A stretch of 32,000 nt of DNA. Source: Propionibacterium ruminifibrarum (lineage in GTDB: Bacteria > Actinomycetota > Actinomycetes > Propionibacteriales > Propionibacteriaceae). The stretch spans positions 414,768 to 446,767 of the forward strand of contig NZ_OMOH01000001.1 in NCBI RefSeq assembly GCF_900289195.1. Direction: 5' to 3'. Below the pieces are notes generated by a model. It had not been told where the DNA came from. It worked only from the letters and a program-made list of their open reading frames with translations, and searched no databases. Below, in pieces: positions 13,363 through 22,462 of this stretch. The position numbers and the translations under genes were made by a program. Each line of letters opens with the position of its first letter. The stretch's first letter is position 1.

Positions 13363-13550
13363 GTGCGTCAGTCTAGGACGGGACCGCGGAGCAGGCCGAG
13401 ATGCCCTGCTGGCGGCGCGCTGAACCACGCCACCAGCATTTTCCACGGGTCGATCCACACTTTTGCCGCGGTCGCCGTTATGGTTGGGTATGGCGTCACG
13501 CGGGAGGGCCCGCCGAGTCGCCTCCACGAGGAAACAAGGCAGTCGCTCAA

Positions 13551-14678
13551 ATGACCGGACATCATGTGCCAGCGCCCGGCGGCGGTCAGCCAGTCGGTGG
13601 CGTCGCCCTGCCCGTCACCGAGCTCTTGGCGTCCCTGACGGACGTCGTCGCCCAGGTTCACGCCACCCTCGGCCCCGACCAGAGCGGCCTGTGCGTGCAC
13701 CGCAACCTGACTGCGGCACGCTGCCAGACCGTCCAGATGCAGACCCGGCCGCGTCCCGTGGGAGAGCTGAAGCCGATGACCTGCCTGCTCGACCCGGGCA
13801 GCACGTGCATCCTGGCCGGACCGCGCCTGAAGTGCCCGCGGGCGATGGACGAGAAGGACGTCGTCCGGGTGGGCTTCGGCAAGGACGACGAGTTCGGGTG
13901 GTTGTGGCACGCGCACCTGGGCGGCACCGATCCCGCCCGCCGGCAGGCCGAGGAACTCGTCCTGGTGGCGATGGCCGGCATGGCCGAACGGTTGATCTCC
14001 AGGGCGATCCAGGCCGACGACTCCGAGGCGCGCATGATCGCCGGCGAACGCGAACGGATCTCGAGGGAGCTGCACGACGGCGTCGCCCAAGTGCTCGGCT
14101 CGGCTCATCTGCGCCTGTCGGCCCTGGCGGGGCAGGAGGAGCTCGGGGACGAGACGGTCAGCGAACTCACCCAGATCAGCCAGGACTGCGCAATGGCCTA
14201 CGCCGACGTCCGTGAGGCCATCTGGGACCTGCACATGCCCGAGGAGATGACCGGTTCGCTGGCCTCCGGCATCCGGTCCACGACCGGCGCCTTCGAGCGG
14301 CGCACCGGCATCACCTGCCGCGTCGAACTGGCCGATCCGGGCATCAGCCTGCCCGCCGGCACGCGCCTGCAGCTGCTGCGCGTCGTGCAGGAGGCACTGA
14401 CCAATGTGCGCAAGCACGCGCACGCGAGCACCGTCGACGTGACGATGCGCACCAACCCGAACAGCATCACCATCAACATCAGCGACGACGGGATCGGGTT
14501 CGAGGACCCCGAACCGGCCCCCGGCCACTTCGGCCTGCTGTCGATGCGCGAGCGCATCGAGGGCATTGGCGGGCGCCTGAGCATCATGAGCATCCCCGGG
14601 GCGGGCACCTGCGTCAGCGCGGTCGTGCCGCTCGCTCTGTCCGACGAGAGCCCTCGCGAGGAAAGGACCCGTGTATGA
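13551..14678 (+). CDS. Cytoplasmic sensor histidine kinase (HisKA_3/NarX-LiaS class) with an N-terminal Cys-rich GAF-like input domain
   Basis: H-box ERERISRELHDGVAQ. HATPase_c motifs QEALTNVRKHA, DDGIGF and GHFGLLSMRERI. No TM segments are visible. Five Cys lie in the ~160-aa N-terminal domain. The stop overlaps the regulator start (ATGA). The ATG 13551 start is my choice within ORF 13401..14678. Confidence 0.82.
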   Translation: MTGHHVPAPGGGQPVGGVALPVTELLASLTDVVAQVHATLGPDQSGLCVHRNLTAARCQTVQMQTRPRPVGELKPMTCLLDPGSTCILAGPRLKCPRAMDEKDVVRVGFGKDDEFGWLWHAHLGGTDPARRQAEELVLVAMAGMAERLISRAIQADDSEARMIAGERERISRELHDGVAQVLGSAHLRLSALAGQEELGDETVSELTQISQDCAMAYADVREAIWDLHMPEEMTGSLASGIRSTTGAFERRTGITCRVELADPGISLPAGTRLQLLRVVQEALTNVRKHAHASTVDVTMRTNPNSITINISDDGIGFEDPEPAPGHFGLLSMRERIEGIGGRLSIMSIPGAGTCVSAVVPLALSDESPREERTRV

Positions 14679-15370
14679 ACACGACGCCGACGGAACCGAA
14701 GCACGAACCGATCCGCGTCGTCATCGCCGACGACCAGACACTCTTCCGCCGAGCCGTCAGTGCGCTCATCGGCCGGGAGGACGACATGACCGTCATCGGC
14801 GAGGCCTCCAACGGACTGGAAGTGCTCGAGACCGTCGGCTCGACCGAACCTGACGTGGTGATCCTCGACCTCGAGATGCCGGTGATGAACGGGGCCCGGG
14901 CCGCCAAACTCCTGCGCGAACGGCACCCGGACCTGAAGATCGTCATGCTCACCGTCCATGACGAGAACGAGCTGCTGACCGAGGCCGTGCGCGCCGGGGC
15001 CGACGGCTACCTGCTCAAGGACCTCGAGCCGGCCGAGCTGCTGCAGATGATCCGCGGCGTCATGGCCGACCAGTCCCCCCTGTCACCGAAACTGGTCAGC
15101 GGCCTGCTCAACCAGCTGCGCGTCGGCCTGGACGTGCAGAAGGTCATCGTGCCGGAACCGGACACCGCGCACGGGCTGAGCCGACGCGAGCTCGAGATCA
15201 TGACGCTCGTGTCCAAGGGCATGTCGAACCGTGAGATCGCCACGCACCTGACCATCACGGAGGGCACGGTCAAGAACCACGTGCACAACGCGCTGCGCAA
15301 GCTCGGCATGAGCAACCGCAGCCAGGCCGCCGCGTACATCATCCGCAACGGGCTGAACATCCGGGTCTGA
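14675..15370 (+). CDS. NarL/LuxR-family response regulator
   Basis: REC domain (IRVVIADDQ...VVILDLEMPVMNG...) followed by a LuxR-type HTH (LSRRELEIMTLVSKGMSNREIATHLTITEGTVKNHVHNALRKLG). Confidence 0.92.
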   Translation: MNTTPTEPKHEPIRVVIADDQTLFRRAVSALIGREDDMTVIGEASNGLEVLETVGSTEPDVVILDLEMPVMNGARAAKLLRERHPDLKIVMLTVHDENELLTEAVRAGADGYLLKDLEPAELLQMIRGVMADQSPLSPKLVSGLLNQLRVGLDVQKVIVPEPDTAHGLSRRELEIMTLVSKGMSNREIATHLTITEGTVKNHVHNALRKLGMSNRSQAAAYIIRNGLNIRV

Positions 15371-15511: not shown

Positions 15512-16012
15512 GTGACCATGACGAGCGGGCGCCGAGCATCCGGCGTACTGGCTGCTGCGCGTCGATGGTTGCCGGGAATCGCTGGACTACTCATCGGCGC
15601 CCTGGTGGGGCTGGCGGCGTTCACGTTCATCTACGCCAACGGTTTGTCCTACCTGGGTCATGACCCCAAGGCCTGTGCCAGCTGCCATGTGATGCAGGAC
15701 TACTACGACGCCTACACCGCCGGGGCGCACCACCACGTCGCCGGGTGCAACGACTGCCACACGCCCCACGACCTCGTCGGCAAGTACGCCGTCAAGGCCG
15801 AGAACGGCCTGCACCACTCGATCGCGTTCACCTCCGGAAACTACCCGCAGAACATCCAGGCGCGAGACGTCTCCTTGCAGATCATCAACAACAACTGCAT
15901 CTACTGCCATGGCGGGTTCACCCACGACGTGCTGGCCAGCCAGCGAGACGGCGACCAGATCATGTGCATCCGATGCCACCAGGGGGTGGGCCATGACGTG
16001 CGGGGCAAGTGA
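15512..16012 (+). CDS. nrfH: Tetraheme NapC/NirT-family quinol dehydrogenase, cytochrome c nitrite reductase small subunit
   Basis: N-terminal TM helix followed by four CXXCH motifs (CASCH, CNDCH, CIYCH, CIRCH). It lies directly upstream of nrfA. The start is GTG 15512 or ATG 15518, with a GGGGTGGG SD-like sequence upstream. Confidence 0.88.
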   Translation: MTMTSGRRASGVLAAARRWLPGIAGLLIGALVGLAAFTFIYANGLSYLGHDPKACASCHVMQDYYDAYTAGAHHHVAGCNDCHTPHDLVGKYAVKAENGLHHSIAFTSGNYPQNIQARDVSLQIINNNCIYCHGGFTHDVLASQRDGDQIMCIRCHQGVGHDVRGK

Positions 16013-16090: not shown

Positions 16091-17590
16091 ATGAGCGGAT
16101 CGAACCAGTCCCAGTACAGACCGCGGGTCTCGCGCATGAGCAAGACCGCGATGTTCATCGTGTTCCTCATCGCCGGCGCCCTGGTCGCTGCCGGTATCGT
16201 CGCGCTGCTCACGAGCATCTTCAATCACAAGCAGGAGGGCAGGGAGCAGTTCACCCAGGTGGTCGAGCTCGACGAGACCGTGGTCGACCCGGCCGTGTGG
16301 GGCCAGAACTTCCCCGAGCAGTACGAGTCGTACATGATGACGAGCGACCCCCGCCCCGGGAACTACTTCCCCAGGACACCGACCGCCGATGATCCCCGCG
16401 AGTGGACCACCTACGACAACCTGGCCAACGACGAACGCCTGGTGACCATGTGGGCCGGCTACCCGTTCTCGGTGGACTACACCGAGCCCCGCGGGCACAA
16501 CTGGATGCTCATCGACCAGCGCTACACCAAGCGGACGACGCAGTTCAAGCAGCCCGGCTACTGCCTCAACTGCCACGTCAGCGTGCCGAAGCTGTTCACC
16601 GACCTGGGTAACGGCGACACCGTGGCCGGCTGGGAGAAGATGAACGCCATGACCTATGACGACGCCTACGAGATCGCCAAGGACAACGGCCCGATAGCCT
16701 GCATCGACTGCCACGATCCCGCGACGATGGAGCTGCGTGTCACGCGTCCGGCCTTCATGAGGGGCATCGCCGCCTACAAGGCCTCGCAGGGCGTCTCCGA
16801 CTACGACGTGAACCGCGACGCCTCCACCCAGGAGATGCGCACCTACGTCTGCGCCCAGTGCCACGTCGAGTACTACCGGTCCCCGGAGGACGACAACCTG
16901 ACGTTCCCGTGGAGCAAGGGCCTGACGATCGACGACGCGTACAACTACTACCAGGAGATCGACTTCACGGACTTCACGCACGAGCTCACCGGGGCCTCGA
17001 TCATCAAGGCACAGCACCCCGACTTCGAGACCTGGCAGAACGGCACCCACGGTCAGGCCGGCGTCACCTGCGCCGACTGCCACATGGCGTACCAGAGCGC
17101 CGGCGCGAAGAAGGTCAGCAATCACCACGTGACCTCGCCGATGGACGACGTCAACGGAACGTGCGGCACCTGCCACAAGGTCTCCGACGATGAACTCAAG
17201 GCGCGCGTGGCGACGATCCAGACCCGCTTCTACCAGGCGCGGGACGTCTCCTTCGACGCACTGGTCGCCCTGATCGATGACATCGAGAAGGCCCAGAGCA
17301 ACGGCACGCCCGCCGATCGCGTCGAGGCTGCGCGCAACTACCAGCGCAAGGCGCAGTTCTACATGGACTACGTCGAGTCCGAGAACTCCCACGGCTTCCA
17401 CGCCCCCGAGTACTCGCTCCGCATCCTCAACGACGTGACCGACACGGCACGCCAGGGCCAGCTCGCACTGACCGGCGCCGATGTCCCGAGCACGCCCGAG
17501 CCGGGTCGTGCCAACGACCAGGCCGCCCCGCTGCCCGCGGGCTCGACCCCGATCAACACGTCCGTCCCGACCCCGTCACCGTCGCCATGA
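16091..17590 (+). CDS. nrfA: Pentaheme cytochrome c nitrite reductase (ammonia-forming), CXXCH-type catalytic heme variant, membrane-anchored
   Basis: AGGAGG SD upstream. Five heme motifs are present: CLNCH, CIDCH, CAQCH, CADCH and CGTCH. NrfA hallmarks EPRGH, CAQCHVEYY and KAQHPDFETW are present. There is an N-terminal hydrophobic anchor and a Pro/Ser/Thr-rich C-terminal tail. Confidence 0.9.
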   Translation: MSGSNQSQYRPRVSRMSKTAMFIVFLIAGALVAAGIVALLTSIFNHKQEGREQFTQVVELDETVVDPAVWGQNFPEQYESYMMTSDPRPGNYFPRTPTADDPREWTTYDNLANDERLVTMWAGYPFSVDYTEPRGHNWMLIDQRYTKRTTQFKQPGYCLNCHVSVPKLFTDLGNGDTVAGWEKMNAMTYDDAYEIAKDNGPIACIDCHDPATMELRVTRPAFMRGIAAYKASQGVSDYDVNRDASTQEMRTYVCAQCHVEYYRSPEDDNLTFPWSKGLTIDDAYNYYQEIDFTDFTHELTGASIIKAQHPDFETWQNGTHGQAGVTCADCHMAYQSAGAKKVSNHHVTSPMDDVNGTCGTCHKVSDDELKARVATIQTRFYQARDVSFDALVALIDDIEKAQSNGTPADRVEAARNYQRKAQFYMDYVESENSHGFHAPEYSLRILNDVTDTARQGQLALTGADVPSTPEPGRANDQAAPLPAGSTPINTSVPTPSPSP

Positions 17591-17615: not shown

Positions 17616-17653
17616 GCGGCACCGGTGATGTGCACCGGTGCCGCGCTTTCTGT
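17616..17653 (+). terminator. Intrinsic-terminator/attenuator hairpin after nrfA
   Basis: gcggcaccggtg (17616-17627), loop atgtg, caccggtgccgc (17633-17644), then gctttctgt. Confidence 0.55.
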
Positions 17654-17745: not shown

Positions 17746-18819
17746 ATGATGATGACGCGGCACTCGAGCCTGGCCCAGGCCAGACACACGCTGCTGAGCT
17801 CGCTGGGGCTCCCGCCCGACGCGAGCGCCGAGGAGTTGGCCGCGAAGAAGGCCGAGTTGAGTTCATCGCTCACGACCGCATCCGAGGGCCGCTCGGAGTG
17901 GCTCACCCAGCAGATCGCCAAAGTCGACGCCGTCATCGCCCTCGATGCCGCCGGGGCTGACGGTGGCGCCGGTGAGCCGACCGGGCGGGCGGGTGACGAG
18001 CCGGACGCCGCCACGGCCTCCCCGGCAGCCGAGGAGGCCGATCCCGATGACCCGGTCGCCCTCGACGAGATCGATGAGGTGGCCGAGGCCCGCCGCGCCG
18101 CCCGCAAGGCCGCCCGGAAGAACACCGTCCACGGCGCCGACGCGGACACCTCGCCGAAGGCCGCGGGTTCGTCAACGGTGAAGAAGACCCGGAACACGTC
18201 CGCCGGCCGTCGCGGCGGCGACACCGCCAGCTGGGTGGCGCGGATCCTCATCGTCGCCATCGTCGTGGCTGTCGTCCTGGCCGTCTACAAGCTCGGGGCC
18301 CCCGCGGACTCGAGTTCGGACGCCTCGGCCTCGGACCTGATGGGCATGGGGGCCACTGCTACGCCGACGCTCGACGAGGCCCAGGTGGCCGAGCTCGAGC
18401 AGCGGGTCAGGGACAACCCCGAGGACACCGACGCCATGGGCCAGCTGGCCTCGCTGTACGCCGCGGTCGGCGACTACGCCAACGCCTCCAAGTGGCAGGC
18501 CCGGCGCGTCGAGTTGATGCCCGACGACGTCGACGCCCAGCTCACCCTCGGCGTCTCCTGCTTCAACAACGGCGACCTGGACTGTGCCAAGGAGCACTGG
18601 GACATCGTCAACGAACTCGACCCGGACCGCGCGGACCTGCACTTCAACCTCGGCTACTACTACCTGTCGATCGACCCGCCCGACATCGAGATGGTGAAGA
18701 AGGAGTGGAACCGGGTCCTCGAACTCGAACCCGACGGCGAGTACGCCCAGATCGTCGAATCGCACATGGGCAGCTTCGACACCATGACCGCATCCCCCAG
18801 CGCCAGCCCGACACCGTGA
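17746..18819 (+). CDS. Membrane-anchored TPR protein (CcmI/NrfG-like), predicted cytoplasmic N-domain, one TM, extracytoplasmic TPR domain
   Basis: Three consecutive ATGs at 17746-17754 follow GGAG. Basic stretch RRAARKAARK...RRGG, then [21 protein letters not shown]. Three TPR-like repeats are readable by eye (TDAMGQLASLYAAVGDYANASKWQARRVELMPDD, VDAQLTLGVSCFNNGDLDCAKEHWDIVNELDPDR, ADLHFNLGYYYLSID...KKEWNRVLELEPDG). Confidence 0.7.
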   Translation: MMMTRHSSLAQARHTLLSSLGLPPDASAEELAAKKAELSSSLTTASEGRSEWLTQQIAKVDAVIALDAAGADGGAGEPTGRAGDEPDAATASPAAEEADPDDPVALDEIDEVAEARRAARKAARKNTVHGADADTSPKAAGSSTVKKTRNTSAGRRGGDTASWVARILIVAIVVAVVLAVYKLGAPADSSSDASASDLMGMGATATPTLDEAQVAELEQRVRDNPEDTDAMGQLASLYAAVGDYANASKWQARRVELMPDDVDAQLTLGVSCFNNGDLDCAKEHWDIVNELDPDRADLHFNLGYYYLSIDPPDIEMVKKEWNRVLELEPDGEYAQIVESHMGSFDTMTASPSASPTP

Positions 18820-18825
18820 CCGCCC

Positions 18826-19527
18826 ATGGAACCGATCACCTTTCCCCTGGCCCTGCTGGCTGGCGTCGTCTCGTTCGCGTCGCCCTGCTTCCTGCCCATC
18901 GTGCCGGTCTACGTCGGATACGTGGCACAGGGGCGTGACGGCGCGGCGGGCTCGCGCCGTCACGCGGTGACAGGGGCGCTGTTCTTCGTCCTGGGCTTCT
19001 CGGCCGTGTTCATGGCGCTGTGGGCGTCGTTCGGCACCCTCAGCGAGCTCCTGGCCGGGCACCGAGCACTCCTGCGCATCATCGGCGGGGCGATCATCAT
19101 CGTGATGGGGCTGTACGTGGCCGGCCTCATCCGGCTGGCACCGCTCGACCAGAACAGCCAGCCGCTGCTGCGCGCACGCCGGTCGTCGCGCCCCGGACTC
19201 GCCTCCTTGCTCATGGGCGTGGGTTTCGGGGCGGGCTGGACCCCCTGCATCGGGCCCGTCCTGGGCGGCATCATCGCGCTGGCCCAGATGAGTTCCTCCG
19301 CCGGGCGCGGCGCCCTCCTCATGGCGGTCTACTGCCTCGGGCTGGGGATCCCGTTCGTCCTGGTGGCGGCCGGGGCCTCGCAGCTGTGCGACAGGCTCGG
19401 CTGGTTCCAGCGCCACCACGTGGCGGTCTCGCGCGTCTGCGGCGCGCTGCTGGTGGTGACGGGTTTCCTGATCATCACGAATCTCTTCGAGCGTCTGGCC
19501 GGCTTTCTTCCGGTGCCGGCCCCCTGA
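18826..19527 (+). CDS. ccdA: Cytochrome c biogenesis thiol-reductant transporter CcdA (DsbD-family membrane protein)
   Basis: Starts MEPITFPLALLAGVVSFASPCFLPIVPVYVGY, and the second conserved Cys lies in GWTPCIGPVLGGI. Multi-pass membrane protein. Confidence 0.9.
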   Translation: MEPITFPLALLAGVVSFASPCFLPIVPVYVGYVAQGRDGAAGSRRHAVTGALFFVLGFSAVFMALWASFGTLSELLAGHRALLRIIGGAIIIVMGLYVAGLIRLAPLDQNSQPLLRARRSSRPGLASLLMGVGFGAGWTPCIGPVLGGIIALAQMSSSAGRGALLMAVYCLGLGIPFVLVAAGASQLCDRLGWFQRHHVAVSRVCGALLVVTGFLIITNLFERLAGFLPVPAP

Positions 19528-19544
19528 GGACGAGGTGGAACACC

Positions 19545-20975
19545 ATGACGACACCAGCCGACGAGTACGACGAGGCCCCGCAGATCGGGGTCGGCGACTT
19601 CTTCGGGGCGATATACCGTTTCTTCTACAACAAGAAGGTCGGCCTGGCACTGATCCTGGCGATGGGCGTCCTGAGCCTGCTCGGCATCCTGATCGAGCAG
19701 GTGAATCCGACGGTGCGCGCCGATCCCGACATGTACGCCGCCTGGCTGGAGCAGGTGCGCTCGACGTACGGCGGCTGGACGAGCGTGCTCGACGCGATCG
19801 GTTTCTTCCACATGTTCGGCTCCCCGCTGTACATCGGGATGCTCACCCTGCTCGCCCTGTCGATCATCGCCTGCACCGTGCACCGGATCCCGGTGCTGTG
19901 GAGGAATGCGGCGCACCCGAAGACGCGCGTGACACCGGGCTTCTACTCGCGGGCCCGGACCCGGTCGCAGGCGGTGAGCCCGCTGAGCACCGGCGAGGCC
20001 CACGACCAGGTGCGCACGATGCTGTCGAAGGCGCACTTCAGGGTGCTGTCCGATCCTGAGCGCCCCGACCAGCTCTACGCCGACCGGTTCCGCTTCGCCC
20101 CCTTCGGCACGGTGTTCGCCCACTCGGCCTTCATCATCATCCTCATCGGCTTCACCCTGACGGGAGCGGCCGGTTTCCAGGACGACGAGGTGACGGTCCC
20201 GCTGGAGAGCCGCGTCGAGGTGGGGCACGACACCGGTCTCGAGGTCGAGCTCATCTCGTTCGAGGACAGCTACTACGACGACGGCAGTCCCAAGGACTAC
20301 GTGAGCGATCTCGCCGTCTACCGGGATGGCCAGCAGGTGGCCCGGCAGATGGTGCGCGTCAACCACCCCCTCAAGGTCGACGGGGTGGCCTTCAACCAGA
20401 GCTACTTCGGTGTCGCCGCCGACGTGACCGTCGCCGACGCCGAGGGCATCGAGATCACCACGCAGGTGGTGCCGCTGCAGTGGAGCACCGATGACGGCCA
20501 GAACGCGTACGGGATGATCAACCTGCCCGAGCAGCACCTCGACGTCTACGTGATGACCGCCGCCTCGGGAGCCACCTCCTCCCAGCTGGCTCCCGGTGAG
20601 GCGCGCATCGAGGTCTACGGCGAGGGGGAGCAGACGCTGCGCGGTTCGGGAACCATCCAGCAGGGCTCCCCGGGCACCGTCGGCGGGTTGAAGTTCACCT
20701 TCAACCGGGAGAAGACCTACACCGGGCTGCTCGTGGCCCACGACCCGGGAGCCGTCTGGGTGTGGGTCGGCTCGGGCCTGCTGCTGGCCGGCATCTGCAT
20801 GACGATGCTCGCCCGCCACCGGCGGGTCTGGGTACGCATCAGCGAGGCGCCGGAGGGCGGCTCGCTCGTGCAGTTCGCCTGCCCGGACCGCCACGACACG
20901 TCGTTCGAGAACCAGCTGAACCGCATGGCCGCGAGCCTTGCGGACAATGCCGAGGAGGACACCGAGAATGCTTGA
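19545..20975 (+). CDS. resB: System II cytochrome c biogenesis protein ResB/Ccs1/CcsB
   Basis: In-frame ATG 19545 with GAGGTGG SD. The N-terminus FFYNKKVGLALILAMGVLSLLGILIEQ is followed by a conserved His in CTVHRIP, a large extracytoplasmic domain and a C-terminal TM. It lies directly upstream of ccsA with an 8-nt overlap. Confidence 0.85.
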   Translation: MTTPADEYDEAPQIGVGDFFGAIYRFFYNKKVGLALILAMGVLSLLGILIEQVNPTVRADPDMYAAWLEQVRSTYGGWTSVLDAIGFFHMFGSPLYIGMLTLLALSIIACTVHRIPVLWRNAAHPKTRVTPGFYSRARTRSQAVSPLSTGEAHDQVRTMLSKAHFRVLSDPERPDQLYADRFRFAPFGTVFAHSAFIIILIGFTLTGAAGFQDDEVTVPLESRVEVGHDTGLEVELISFEDSYYDDGSPKDYVSDLAVYRDGQQVARQMVRVNHPLKVDGVAFNQSYFGVAADVTVADAEGIEITTQVVPLQWSTDDGQNAYGMINLPEQHLDVYVMTAASGATSSQLAPGEARIEVYGEGEQTLRGSGTIQQGSPGTVGGLKFTFNREKTYTGLLVAHDPGAVWVWVGSGLLLAGICMTMLARHRRVWVRISEAPEGGSLVQFACPDRHDTSFENQLNRMAASLADNAEEDTENA

Positions 20976-21819
20976 GATCTCTCGATACTGCCTGGTCGCG
21001 GCCACGATCGCGGTGGCCCTGTCCCTCATCGCGCAGATCGTCGTGTCGACGGCCCGTGCGACCCCTGGGACGAAGCAGACGGGGGATGGGCGCACCGCGC
21101 AGCCCAGGGGCCGGGGCCTGGCCCACTACGCGGCCGTGCTCGACCAGTTCGCGTTCCTGTGCCTCACGGCGTGCCTGGTGCTGCGCACGATCGTCGTGCA
21201 CAGGGCGCCGCTGTCGAACCAGTACGAGTTCGCGGTCTCGTTCGTCTGGGGCATCATGCTGGCGATGGTGATCGTCGAATGGCGCACGAGGCTGCGCGCC
21301 CTGGCCCTGGCGGTGCTGCCGGTGGCCCTGGCACTGAGCCTGTACTCGCTGACCCTCGACGACACGGCCACCGAGCTCATGCCGGCCCTGCAGAACGGCT
21401 TCCTGCTCCCCCTCCACGTGGTCACCGCCTCGCTCGGCTACGGCGCAGCGGCCGTCTCGTTCGGCGCCGCGGTGCTGTACCTGCTCCACGGCCACCTCGG
21501 GCGCGTGCGGCTGCCGAGCAGGGAGCGGCTGGACGAGATCGGGTACCGTTCGATCATCATCGCGTACCCGCTCATCACGCTGATGATCATCCTGGGTGCG
21601 ATCTGGGCCAACGTGGCCTGGGGCCGCTACTGGAGCTGGGATCCGAAGGAGACCTCGGCCCTGGTCACCTGGCTGTTCTACAGCGCCTACCTGCACGCGC
21701 GGGTCGTCGGCAACTGGCGCGGGGCCAGGGCCGCGTGGCTGCTCATCCTCGGGTTCGCAGCGGTGATCTTCACCTTCATGGGGAATCTCTTCTTCGGAGG
21801 TCTGCACTCCTATGCCTGA
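20968..21819 (+). CDS. ccsA: System II cytochrome c synthase subunit CcsA/ResC (heme-handling WWD protein)
   Basis: Trp-rich WWD motif WGRYWSWDPKETSALVTWL, conserved His residues and multiple TM segments. The ATG overlaps the resB stop (ATGCTTGA). Confidence 0.88.
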   Translation: MLEISRYCLVAATIAVALSLIAQIVVSTARATPGTKQTGDGRTAQPRGRGLAHYAAVLDQFAFLCLTACLVLRTIVVHRAPLSNQYEFAVSFVWGIMLAMVIVEWRTRLRALALAVLPVALALSLYSLTLDDTATELMPALQNGFLLPLHVVTASLGYGAAAVSFGAAVLYLLHGHLGRVRLPSRERLDEIGYRSIIIAYPLITLMIILGAIWANVAWGRYWSWDPKETSALVTWLFYSAYLHARVVGNWRGARAAWLLILGFAAVIFTFMGNLFFGGLHSYA

Positions 21820-22462
21820 TCGTCACAACGCGGGTTCGACACCGCCGGTCACGCAGCGGGCCACGGCCGGGGAGTCGGGCTGGGCCCGGTTCCGGCGCAG
21901 TCCCCTGTTCACCCTGCTCGTACTCGTCGTCACGGCCGTCGTCGTGATCGCCGGCGTGTGGCTGGTGAACCACCACGACGAATCCGACGAGGCCGGTATC
22001 ACCAGTGTCCAGGTCAGCGGCGGCGCCGGGAAACTGGTCGAGGTGGGCCAGCAGGCCCCCGATTTCGCGGCGGCGACGATCGACGGGCAGACGGTGACGC
22101 TCAGCGAGTTGCGCGGCCACCCGGTCTGGCTCGTCTTCGAGGCCACGTGGTGCGCTGCCTGCCGCTCGGAGGCGCCTGACATCGAGGAGGCCTACCAGCA
22201 CGGCAGGCGGGCGGGGCTCGAGACCGTCGGGGTGTACCTGTCGGAGGATTCCGACGCGGTACAGCGGTACGTCAACACGCTCGGCCTGACGTACTCCCAG
22301 GTTCCCGACGCCGGTTCGCGGATCGCCGGCTCGTTCGGGGTGATGGGCATTCCCAGTCACGTGTTCATCGATGCCGACGGCGTGGTGCAGGTCGCCCACC
22401 CGGGGGCACTGAGCGCCGGCCAGATGATCTCCGAGGTGAACCGCCTGACCGGGCAGGGCTGA
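21812..22462 (+). CDS. Membrane-anchored thioredoxin-like protein (ResA/TlpA family)
   Basis: N-terminal TM (LFTLLVLVVTAVVVIAGVWLV) and a thioredoxin fold with WCAAC active site (LVFEATWCAACRSEAP). The ATG overlaps the ccsA stop (ATGCCTGA). Confidence 0.85.
   Translation: MPDRHNAGSTPPVTQRATAGESGWARFRRSPLFTLLVLVVTAVVVIAGVWLVNHHDESDEAGITSVQVSGGAGKLVEVGQQAPDFAAATIDGQTVTLSELRGHPVWLVFEATWCAACRSEAPDIEEAYQHGRRAGLETVGVYLSEDSDAVQRYVNTLGLTYSQVPDAGSRIAGSFGVMGIPSHVFIDADGVVQVAHPGALSAGQMISEVNRLTGQG

Follow-up and report, generated by a model that had tools for sequence, protein, structure and literature searches.

Among bacterial machines for haem attachment, System II is generally described as the minimal one, consisting of a synthase and two thiol-reducing proteins and having no substrate chaperone. 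In System I, the tetratricopeptide repeat (TPR) protein CcmI has two transmembrane helices that flank a cytoplasmic leucine-zipper loop, followed by a periplasmic TPR domain. CcmI/CycH, an apocytochrome c chaperone that in E. coli is fused to CcmH as its C-terminal part, has its gene among those for cytochrome c maturation and is genetically associated with CcmF/CcmH; it binds the C-terminal helix of apocytochrome c and is required for holocytochromes to form. NrfG (PDB 2E2E), an N-terminally anchored periplasmic TPR protein of an nrf locus, has no cytoplasmic domain and acts with the CcmF-type lyase NrfE/NrfF on a CXXCK haem. A recent review describes System II as synthases and thiol oxidoreductases and places TPR chaperones (CcmI, NrfG) in System I only (PMC12285233, 2025 review). 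The subject of this study is a gene for a TPR membrane protein in a 32,000-nucleotide (nt) stretch of the Propionibacterium ruminifibrarum genome (NZ_OMOH01000001.1, positions 414,768 to 446,767; hereafter the window), where it lies between nrfHA and the System II genes ccdA-resB-ccsB-resA. The downstream genes encode bona fide CcdA, ResB, CcsB and ResA proteins. An initial annotation had held that known System II includes no TPR component, and the published parts list agrees. A literature search, outside which most subscription journals fell, turned up no description of a TPR partner for System II or of the present TPR family, and the sole name of the protein in public sources is ‘tetratricopeptide (TPR) repeat protein’.

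Comparison across genomes confirms the TPR gene, as far as sequence can tell, as a real, conserved and specifically linked extra component of what appears to be a multihaem-dedicated cytochrome c maturation module. A pattern scan with one genome per species identified at least 296 confirmed genomic relatives in Actinomycetota and Chloroflexota. Identity at these loci ranges from 74% down to 27%, so the gene is not a chance open reading frame (ORF). The neighbourhood was sampled in 79 loci, fetched with flanks of up to 10 kb, and in 71 of them the TPR gene is directly upstream of ccdA, or of resB where ccdA is missing. Among the remaining eight, three are at contig ends or undetermined and five are true exceptions. 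The TPR stop codon and the ccdA/resB start overlap by 4 nt or are separated by at most 7 nt in approximately 65 of the 71 loci (6 nt in the window). The start was taken as the in-frame codon nearest to the TPR stop, a choice biased towards short gaps, yet most loci have a start codon at exactly -4, which would not be expected by chance. Where ccdA is absent (L018, L024 and L026), the TPR gene is coupled directly to resB. These junctions demonstrate a linkage that is tight and, as read from the gene boundaries, translationally coupled in two phyla. The initial annotation had described the gene as an extra component of a System II locus, and this is upheld by its placement, by the tight junctions and by its co-occurrence with a divergent ResB.

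Judged by its ResB, the TPR-linked System II is a separate, divergent paralogue. Five genomes carry both ResB copies (Micromonospora, Kineosphaera, Intrasporangium, Piscicoccus and one Chloroflexia metagenome-assembled genome, MAG), and in these the housekeeping ResB scores 420-461 bits against PF05140 and the TPR-linked ResB 178-240 bits; housekeeping ResB in relatives overall scores 360-500 bits. Housekeeping ResB is only about 23% identical to the ResB of the window, and the gene order is resA-ccdA-resB-ccsB in the housekeeping operon versus TPR-ccdA-resB-ccsB-resA in the window. No TPR homologue was seen within approximately 8 kb of the housekeeping System II operons of the same genomes. 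In a sample of 121 Propionibacteriaceae genomes, which are relatives and so not independent observations, 32 yielded the TPR gene and 30 yielded NrfA, and all 30 NrfA-positive genomes are among the 32 TPR carriers. The two carriers without NrfA are assembled in fragments, and their TPR gene stands at the edge of a contig. A low-scoring divergent ResB is on the same contig as the TPR gene in 30 of the 32 carriers, and a housekeeping-type ResB is present in about 75 of the 121 genomes, most of them without the TPR gene. In one Propionibacteriaceae genome (G113; contigs C2, C12 and C17) NrfA and the TPR gene occur together on one contig, and another contig holds TPR-like fragments beside a ResB broken into three pieces; these fragments may be a decaying or rearranged second copy. 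Second copies dedicated to particular multihaem proteins are likewise represented by NrfI and CcsA1 of Wolinella.

The likely substrates vary between loci. Of the two associations that the initial annotation had set against each other, that with the ccs genes held (ccdA or resB in 71 of 79 loci) and that with nrfA did not, since just 10 of the 79 loci place NrfA next to the TPR gene and in most of the others its place is taken by hexa-, hepta- and decahaem cytochromes. The most frequent arrangement is [6-haem][7-haem]-TPR-ccdA-resB-ccsB-resA-[10-haem NapC/NirT-like]. An Intrasporangium locus (L080) has both the 6/7/10-haem set and nrfHA; here nrfHA is downstream of the cassette, and the TPR gene still heads ccdA. 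A search of 401 Actinomycetota genomes found NrfA over the cut-off in 30 and the TPR family (E <=1e-20) in 9, counts that are lower bounds given the stricter pre-filter used. The NrfA adjacency in 10 of 79 loci and the NrfA-positive genomes without a TPR match together indicate that there is no obligate or exclusive partnership with NrfA.

A conserved cluster surrounds the module in Chloroflexota and some Actinomycetota (L003 and L015-L087; e.g., L003:4151-20272). A HisKA_3 kinase and a LuxR regulator, a Rieske protein, a second TPR protein, an NHL propeller and the 6-haem and 7-haem cytochromes precede the TPR gene, which is followed by System II and the 10-haem NapC/NirT-like cytochrome, and often then by a Rieske/cytochrome b pair and another decahaem cytochrome. 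This Rieske/NHL/6-7-10-haem cluster is probably a quinol-to-surface electron conduit.

The five true exceptions keep the TPR gene beside multihaem genes. In four Nanopelagicales-like Actinomycetota loci (L046, L060, L066 and L083), the order is [6-haem][7-haem]-TPR-[10-haem], followed by a thioredoxin, ccmE, ccmA/B, ccmC and ccmF, and only in these four do ccmE/AB/C/F genes adjoin the TPR gene. In L060:7995-17976 the same multihaem cluster is present, and a System I cassette with fused ccmA/B replaces System II. The System I-linked genomes keep a housekeeping System II elsewhere. No CcmH (PF03918) was seen in the cassettes of L060, L046, L066 and L083, and no protein of the System I-linked genomes rises above the CcmH/CycH TPR cut-off; in two of them (G525 and G526) the best sub-threshold CcmH/CycH TPR match is the member of the TPR family itself. 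In these four ccm-cluster loci, therefore, the family member stands alone as the candidate for CcmI. In L037 the TPR gene lies between the 7-haem and 10-haem genes with no maturation genes nearby, and the sole ResB of that genome is of the housekeeping type. A TPR-domain tree unites the System I-linked proteins in one well-supported clade (100/98), nested within the well-supported multihaem-linked group (99/95), and the NrfHA-linked proteins, L012 excepted, lie across the midpoint root from that group. The TPR gene is thus kept when either substrates or machinery are swapped, and so behaves as expected of a factor between both.

The protein itself has a simple architecture (Table 1). Its frame is open across 17746-18819, and the initial annotation gave 17746 as the start; two in-frame ATG codons precede 17752. 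Translation more likely begins at the third ATG (17752), which gives a protein of 355 amino acids (aa), because a GGAG lies 6 nt upstream of this codon and all close homologues begin MTRH or MTQH. Residues are numbered here from 17746. A helical N-domain, an acidic linker, a basic segment and one transmembrane helix had been proposed in the initial annotation, and this order is recovered by composition and by an AlphaFold2 (AF2) model built from an 8-sequence alignment. The acidic part of the linker (residues 73-108) has 11 D/E versus 1 K/R, and the basic part (residues 109-160) has 12 K/R and includes an amphipathic helix. In the modelled TPR domain, a lead helix precedes three TPR helix pairs and a capping helix closes the array, a total of eight helices at a predicted local distance difference test score (pLDDT) above 90. 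Its invariant residues are G269, A281, G303 and W321, and N274 and W285 are nearly invariant. The TPR domain of the window protein is strongly acidic (30 D/E versus 10 K/R), which could be relevant to a putative binding of basic apocytochrome segments. Distant homologues have longer, PAS-rich C-terminal tails.

The TPR domain is predicted to be on the extracytoplasmic side of the membrane. Within 25 residues of the transmembrane helix, the K+R residues of 50 family members add up to 287 towards the N-terminus and 28 towards the C-terminus, and the N side is the richer in all 50. Together with the single hydrophobic segment, these positive-inside counts place the N-domain in the cytoplasm and the TPR domain outside the membrane. 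The initial annotation had suggested about three TPR repeats outside the membrane, which is consistent with the three repeats of the AF2 model and with the topology prediction of one transmembrane segment, an internal N-terminus in every one of the 50 members and a TPR domain that is not cytoplasmic.

In its sequence, the protein is a generic TPR protein with a consistent, sub-threshold similarity to CcmH/CycH and NrfG. Membership of the TPR superfamily is supported by Pfam TPR_17 (26.5 bits versus a cut-off of 24.4) and by Foldseek against consensus TPR structures (TM-score (target) 0.78-0.89, root-mean-square deviation 1.6-2.3 Å). The Foldseek matches of the whole model (consensus TPR, OGT, MamA and PEX5) are generic TPR structures only and do not discriminate between them. 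Against PF23914 (TPR_CcmH_CycH) the window protein scores 16.7 bits (E 0.007), below the gathering score of 42 bits; matches to this model occur in 49 of 50 diverse members, all sub-threshold, with a best E of 5.6e-8, and no other function-specific TPR family of Pfam recurs among the 50. The NrfG model NF007692 gives 17.2 bits (E 0.003) for the window protein against a cut-off of 306 bits and matches 16 of the 50 members, all far below the cut-off. The 50-member family profile was further compared by hhalign with single E. coli proteins, with NlpI and CpoB as controls. NrfG (95.3%, E 2.1e-8, 121 columns) and the CcmI-like part of CcmH (90.3%, E 1.5e-6, 164 columns, collinear from the transmembrane helix to the last repeat) rank first, with the longest collinear alignments, followed by NlpI (85.7%, E 5.5e-6, 100 columns) and CpoB (66.7%, E 5.3e-5, 78 columns). 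Designed consensus TPRs dominate a sequence-profile search of the PDB, in which NrfG (E 1e-6) is one of many other matches. Given the small margin over unrelated TPR proteins, sequence alone neither establishes nor excludes a common ancestry with CcmI/NrfG. The relationship to CcmI/NrfG considered in the initial annotation is therefore borne out in part: the two are the best-ranked hhalign matches, but the curated cut-offs are not reached and the architecture is not the same.

The likeness to CcmI/CycH is that of a membrane-anchored protein with an extracytoplasmic TPR domain and, in CcmI/CycH, a functionally important cytoplasmic portion, likewise encoded with cytochrome c maturation genes. 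The window protein differs in having one transmembrane helix, an N-terminal cytoplasmic three-helix domain, a charged linker and only three TPR repeats, and it is found with ccdA/resB in place of CcmF/CcmH, as are the family members at the 71 loci described above. With NrfG it shares the N-terminal anchoring, the TPR domain outside the membrane and a place in an nrf locus. However, it has a cytoplasmic domain that NrfG does not, its locus is without nrfE/nrfF and CXXCK, and most members of its family are not near nrfA.

Of the 79 loci, at least 56 retain the N-domain, including L037 and those linked to System I; its consensus is LLxRLGLxxxASxxDVxxAH...LxxAP..LRxWA. It has no Pfam match. A profile of 28 N-domain sequences searched against the PDB returned almost only J-domains (DnaJ, Hsp40, DNAJC5 and Sec63), all weakly (E 0.0025-2). 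The matches cover J-domain helices I-II (LLxRLGLxxxASxxDV), and the HPD that stands between helices II and III of a J-domain is replaced by a conserved xAP. A model of the N-domain (AF2, pLDDT 77) found nothing significant in Foldseek, where the best match has an E of 1 and J-domains appear at E 5-9 only. The weak profile matches, the missing HPD and the non-significant fold search speak against a true J-domain, and the N-domain may be called J-like at most. Many family members are short forms of 200-320 aa without the N-domain, matching residues 130-350 only.

On balance, the TPR protein is probably a CcmI-like extracytoplasmic chaperone or adaptor for multihaem apocytochromes, by analogy with CcmI/NrfG. 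It would be a bitopic protein with its TPR domain on the outer face of the cytoplasmic membrane, where this domain would hold newly exported, unfolded multihaem apocytochromes (in the window, NrfH and NrfA) and present them to the haem-attaching synthase ResB-CcsB encoded just downstream. CcdA and ResA would meanwhile keep the cysteines of the CXXCH motifs reduced. The TPR protein would thereby fill, in a divergent System II, the role that CcmI/CycH and NrfG have in System I. Apocytochrome binding, contact between the TPR protein and the synthase, and whatever the cytoplasmic J-like N-domain may do are inferences.

Several observations weigh against a chaperone or adaptor role. The gene neighbourhoods compared belong to one family and so do not count as independent observations, and the association with System I, confined to a single clade of the TPR-domain tree, represents one evolutionary event. 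The arrangement in L037 fits a role in a respiratory complex equally well, and at least 20 NrfA-positive genomes among the 401 Actinomycetota sampled have no match to the TPR family. Furthermore, the similarity to CcmI/NrfG is barely above that to unrelated TPR proteins, as the hhalign values of NlpI and CpoB indicate, and NCBIfam ranks MamA, PrsT and PilW above NrfG.

Among the alternatives, most weight was given to a structural or assembly scaffold of the respiratory complex, a possibility that the initial annotation had named for NrfH, and it is nevertheless considered rather unlikely. In a single-membraned cell, such a scaffold would use its TPR domain to tether or organise, at the membrane surface, a quinol dehydrogenase of the NapC/NirT type (NrfH or the decahaem protein) and its soluble multihaem partners. 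A NapC/NirT-family cytochrome (NrfH or 10-haem) is indeed present in every complete locus, the TPR gene is directly between the heptahaem and decahaem genes in L037 and the four System I loci, and it follows multihaem genes even where the sole System II is of the housekeeping type and lies elsewhere in the genome. Yet where NrfHA replaces the 6/7/10-haem set the TPR gene stays at the head of ccdA-resB and is not fixed to the cytochromes, and the same holds in L080, where nrfHA is downstream of the cassette and the TPR gene still precedes ccdA. Translational coupling is with ccdA or resB, not with a cytochrome gene; in the window, NrfA is itself anchored in the membrane by its N-terminus, and a hairpin stands between nrfA and the TPR gene. 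The stop/start overlap, which is most often with ccdA, would suit an accessory of the thiol-reducing branch (CcdA/ResA), or of the coupling of haem supply or export via the J-like domain, that does not itself bind apocytochromes. The retention of a cytoplasmic N-domain with weak J-domain-like profile matches in at least 56 of 79 loci can be read in this way too. This role is nonetheless improbable, given that L018, L024 and L026 have no ccdA and couple the TPR gene to resB, that neither ccdA nor resB adjoins it in the System I loci and L037, and that many members are without the N-domain, which in any case has no HPD and no significant result in the fold search.

The initial annotation had favoured a NrfA-specific chaperone, in the manner of E. 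coli NrfG, a proposal that now has very little probability indeed. Its attraction lies in the perfect co-occurrence and adjacency in Propionibacteriaceae, where all 30 NrfA-positive genomes carry the TPR gene, and in NrfG being the best hhalign match of the four proteins compared. It did not survive the wider comparison, in which 69 of 79 loci are without NrfA and at least 20 NrfA-positive Actinomycetota genomes are without a family match. All five haem motifs of NrfA are CXXCH, so that the task of NrfEFG is absent, and the score to NF007692 is 17 bits versus a cut-off of 306. The gene distribution and the absence of CXXCK have thus largely refuted the NrfA-specific chaperone. It is also very unlikely that a generic TPR protein of unrelated role, in the envelope or in signalling to the adjacent kinase/regulator pair, is hitch-hiking in the operon. 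Although its best sequence and fold matches are generic TPR proteins and many loci share a conserved upstream pair of HisKA_3 kinase and LuxR-type regulator, its position and translational coupling are kept across two phyla at 27-74% identity, it is absent beside housekeeping System II operons, and the kinase is cytoplasmic and encoded 2-8 kb away.

The neighbours of the TPR gene in the window were identified with Pfam and NCBIfam models (Table 1). The haem motifs of NrfA are, in order, CLNCH, CIDCH, CAQCH, CADCH and CGTCH, and with five CXXCH motifs and no CXXCK the protein needs no special lyase. NrfA also carries an N-terminal membrane anchor and a Pro/Thr/Ser C-terminal tail. The host genome is complete, 2.78 Mb in size and high in G+C, and it has one copy of the TPR gene and a single ResB. 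More than one CXXCH motif occurs in just two of its ORFs, NrfH and NrfA, and it showed no QcrC-like dihaem ORF. With a single ResB and NrfHA as the sole multi-CXXCH ORFs, the System II cassette of the host can serve only NrfHA. A second System II copy in the host genome was accordingly rejected; a second copy holds for larger relatives. A perfect 12-13-bp stem forms the hairpin 26 nt past the nrfA stop and approximately 105 nt ahead of the TPR start, and it could attenuate read-through into the maturation genes. A simple promoter/terminator scan found no promoter-like sites and did not call this hairpin, the T-tract being weak. A HisKA_3 kinase and a LuxR-type regulator are encoded upstream of nrfH (13401-15370). 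In both phyla, most loci have this pair, with its cytoplasmic kinase, ahead of the cytochrome/maturation module (tblastn E 1e-30 to 1e-74); the two genes therefore appear to travel with the module.

Table 1. Features of the TPR gene and its surroundings in the window (positions counted from the first letter of the window; residues of the TPR protein counted from 17746).
Feature	Position	Strand	Evidence and remarks
nrfH, four CXXCH motifs, likely substrate	15512..16012	+	TIGR03153, 158.9 bits
nrfA, five CXXCH motifs, no CXXCK, likely substrate	16091..17590	+	PF02335, 408.8 bits
GC-rich hairpin between nrfA and the TPR gene	17616..17644	+	read from sequence: GCGGCACCGGTG-atgt-GCACCGGTGCCGC, then GCTTTCTGT
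TPR membrane protein gene	17752..18819	+	open frame; GGAG 6 nt before 17752; homologue starts
Cytoplasmic three-helix N-domain (predicted)	17761..17961	+	residues 6-72; AF2 pLDDT 85-93
Low-complexity cytoplasmic linker, acidic then basic (predicted)	17962..18225	+	composition; pLDDT <50 except helix 103-125
Single transmembrane helix, N-in/C-out (predicted)	18226..18300	+	residues 161-185; sole hydrophobic segment
Extracytoplasmic TPR domain (predicted)	18376..18780	+	residues 211-345; AF2 pLDDT >90
Pro/Ser/Thr-rich C-terminal tail	18781..18816	+	sequence
ccdA	18826..19527	+	DsbD_TM, PF02683, 53.9 bits; start 6 nt past TPR stop
resB (ccsB-type subunit), divergent copy, sole ResB of host genome	19545..20975	+	PF05140, 215.5 bits
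ccsB/resC (CcsA-type haem-handling subunit)	20938..21819	+	TIGR03144, 216.7 bits versus cut-off 187.6
resA-like membrane-anchored thioredoxin	21812..22462	+	AhpC-TSA/Redoxin; ResA NF002854, E 5e-27

At this locus, the host genome's closest named relatives are Propionibacterium australiense (74% identity) and P. acidifaciens. Among 1.84 billion representatives, a profile search returned 484 proteins at E <=1e-30, a few of which are giant generic TPR proteins, and there are about 480 family clusters at 50% identity; a word-indexed search gave 9 clusters only. Carriers include Propionibacteriaceae, Dermatophilaceae, Intrasporangiaceae, Micromonospora, Nanopelagicales and Thermoleophilia, together with Limnocylindrales, Anaerolineaceae and ‘Chloroflexia’ MAGs.

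A wider scheme, which is proposed tentatively and regarded as somewhat doubtful, is that the family may mark a distinct five-component ‘multihaem-type’ System II in Terrabacteria (Actinomycetota and Chloroflexota). Its first gene would encode the first System II apocytochrome chaperone known, the same family would provide the CcmI equivalent where System I has been swapped in, and the pseudo-J domain would link apoprotein export or haem supply at the inner face to haem attachment at the outer face. A dedicated TPR partner of the multihaem-associated System II would offer an answer to how 4 to at least 10 haem sites are handled, and, if true, it would tie System II to the System I logic of CcmI/NrfG. 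The family has cultivable carriers in Propionibacterium, Micromonospora, Kineosphaera, Piscicoccus and Intrasporangium. The TPR protein may prove an aid to the heterologous production of multihaem cytochromes, and its recognition may allow better annotation of nitrite-ammonifying and electron-conduit clusters in soil Chloroflexota.

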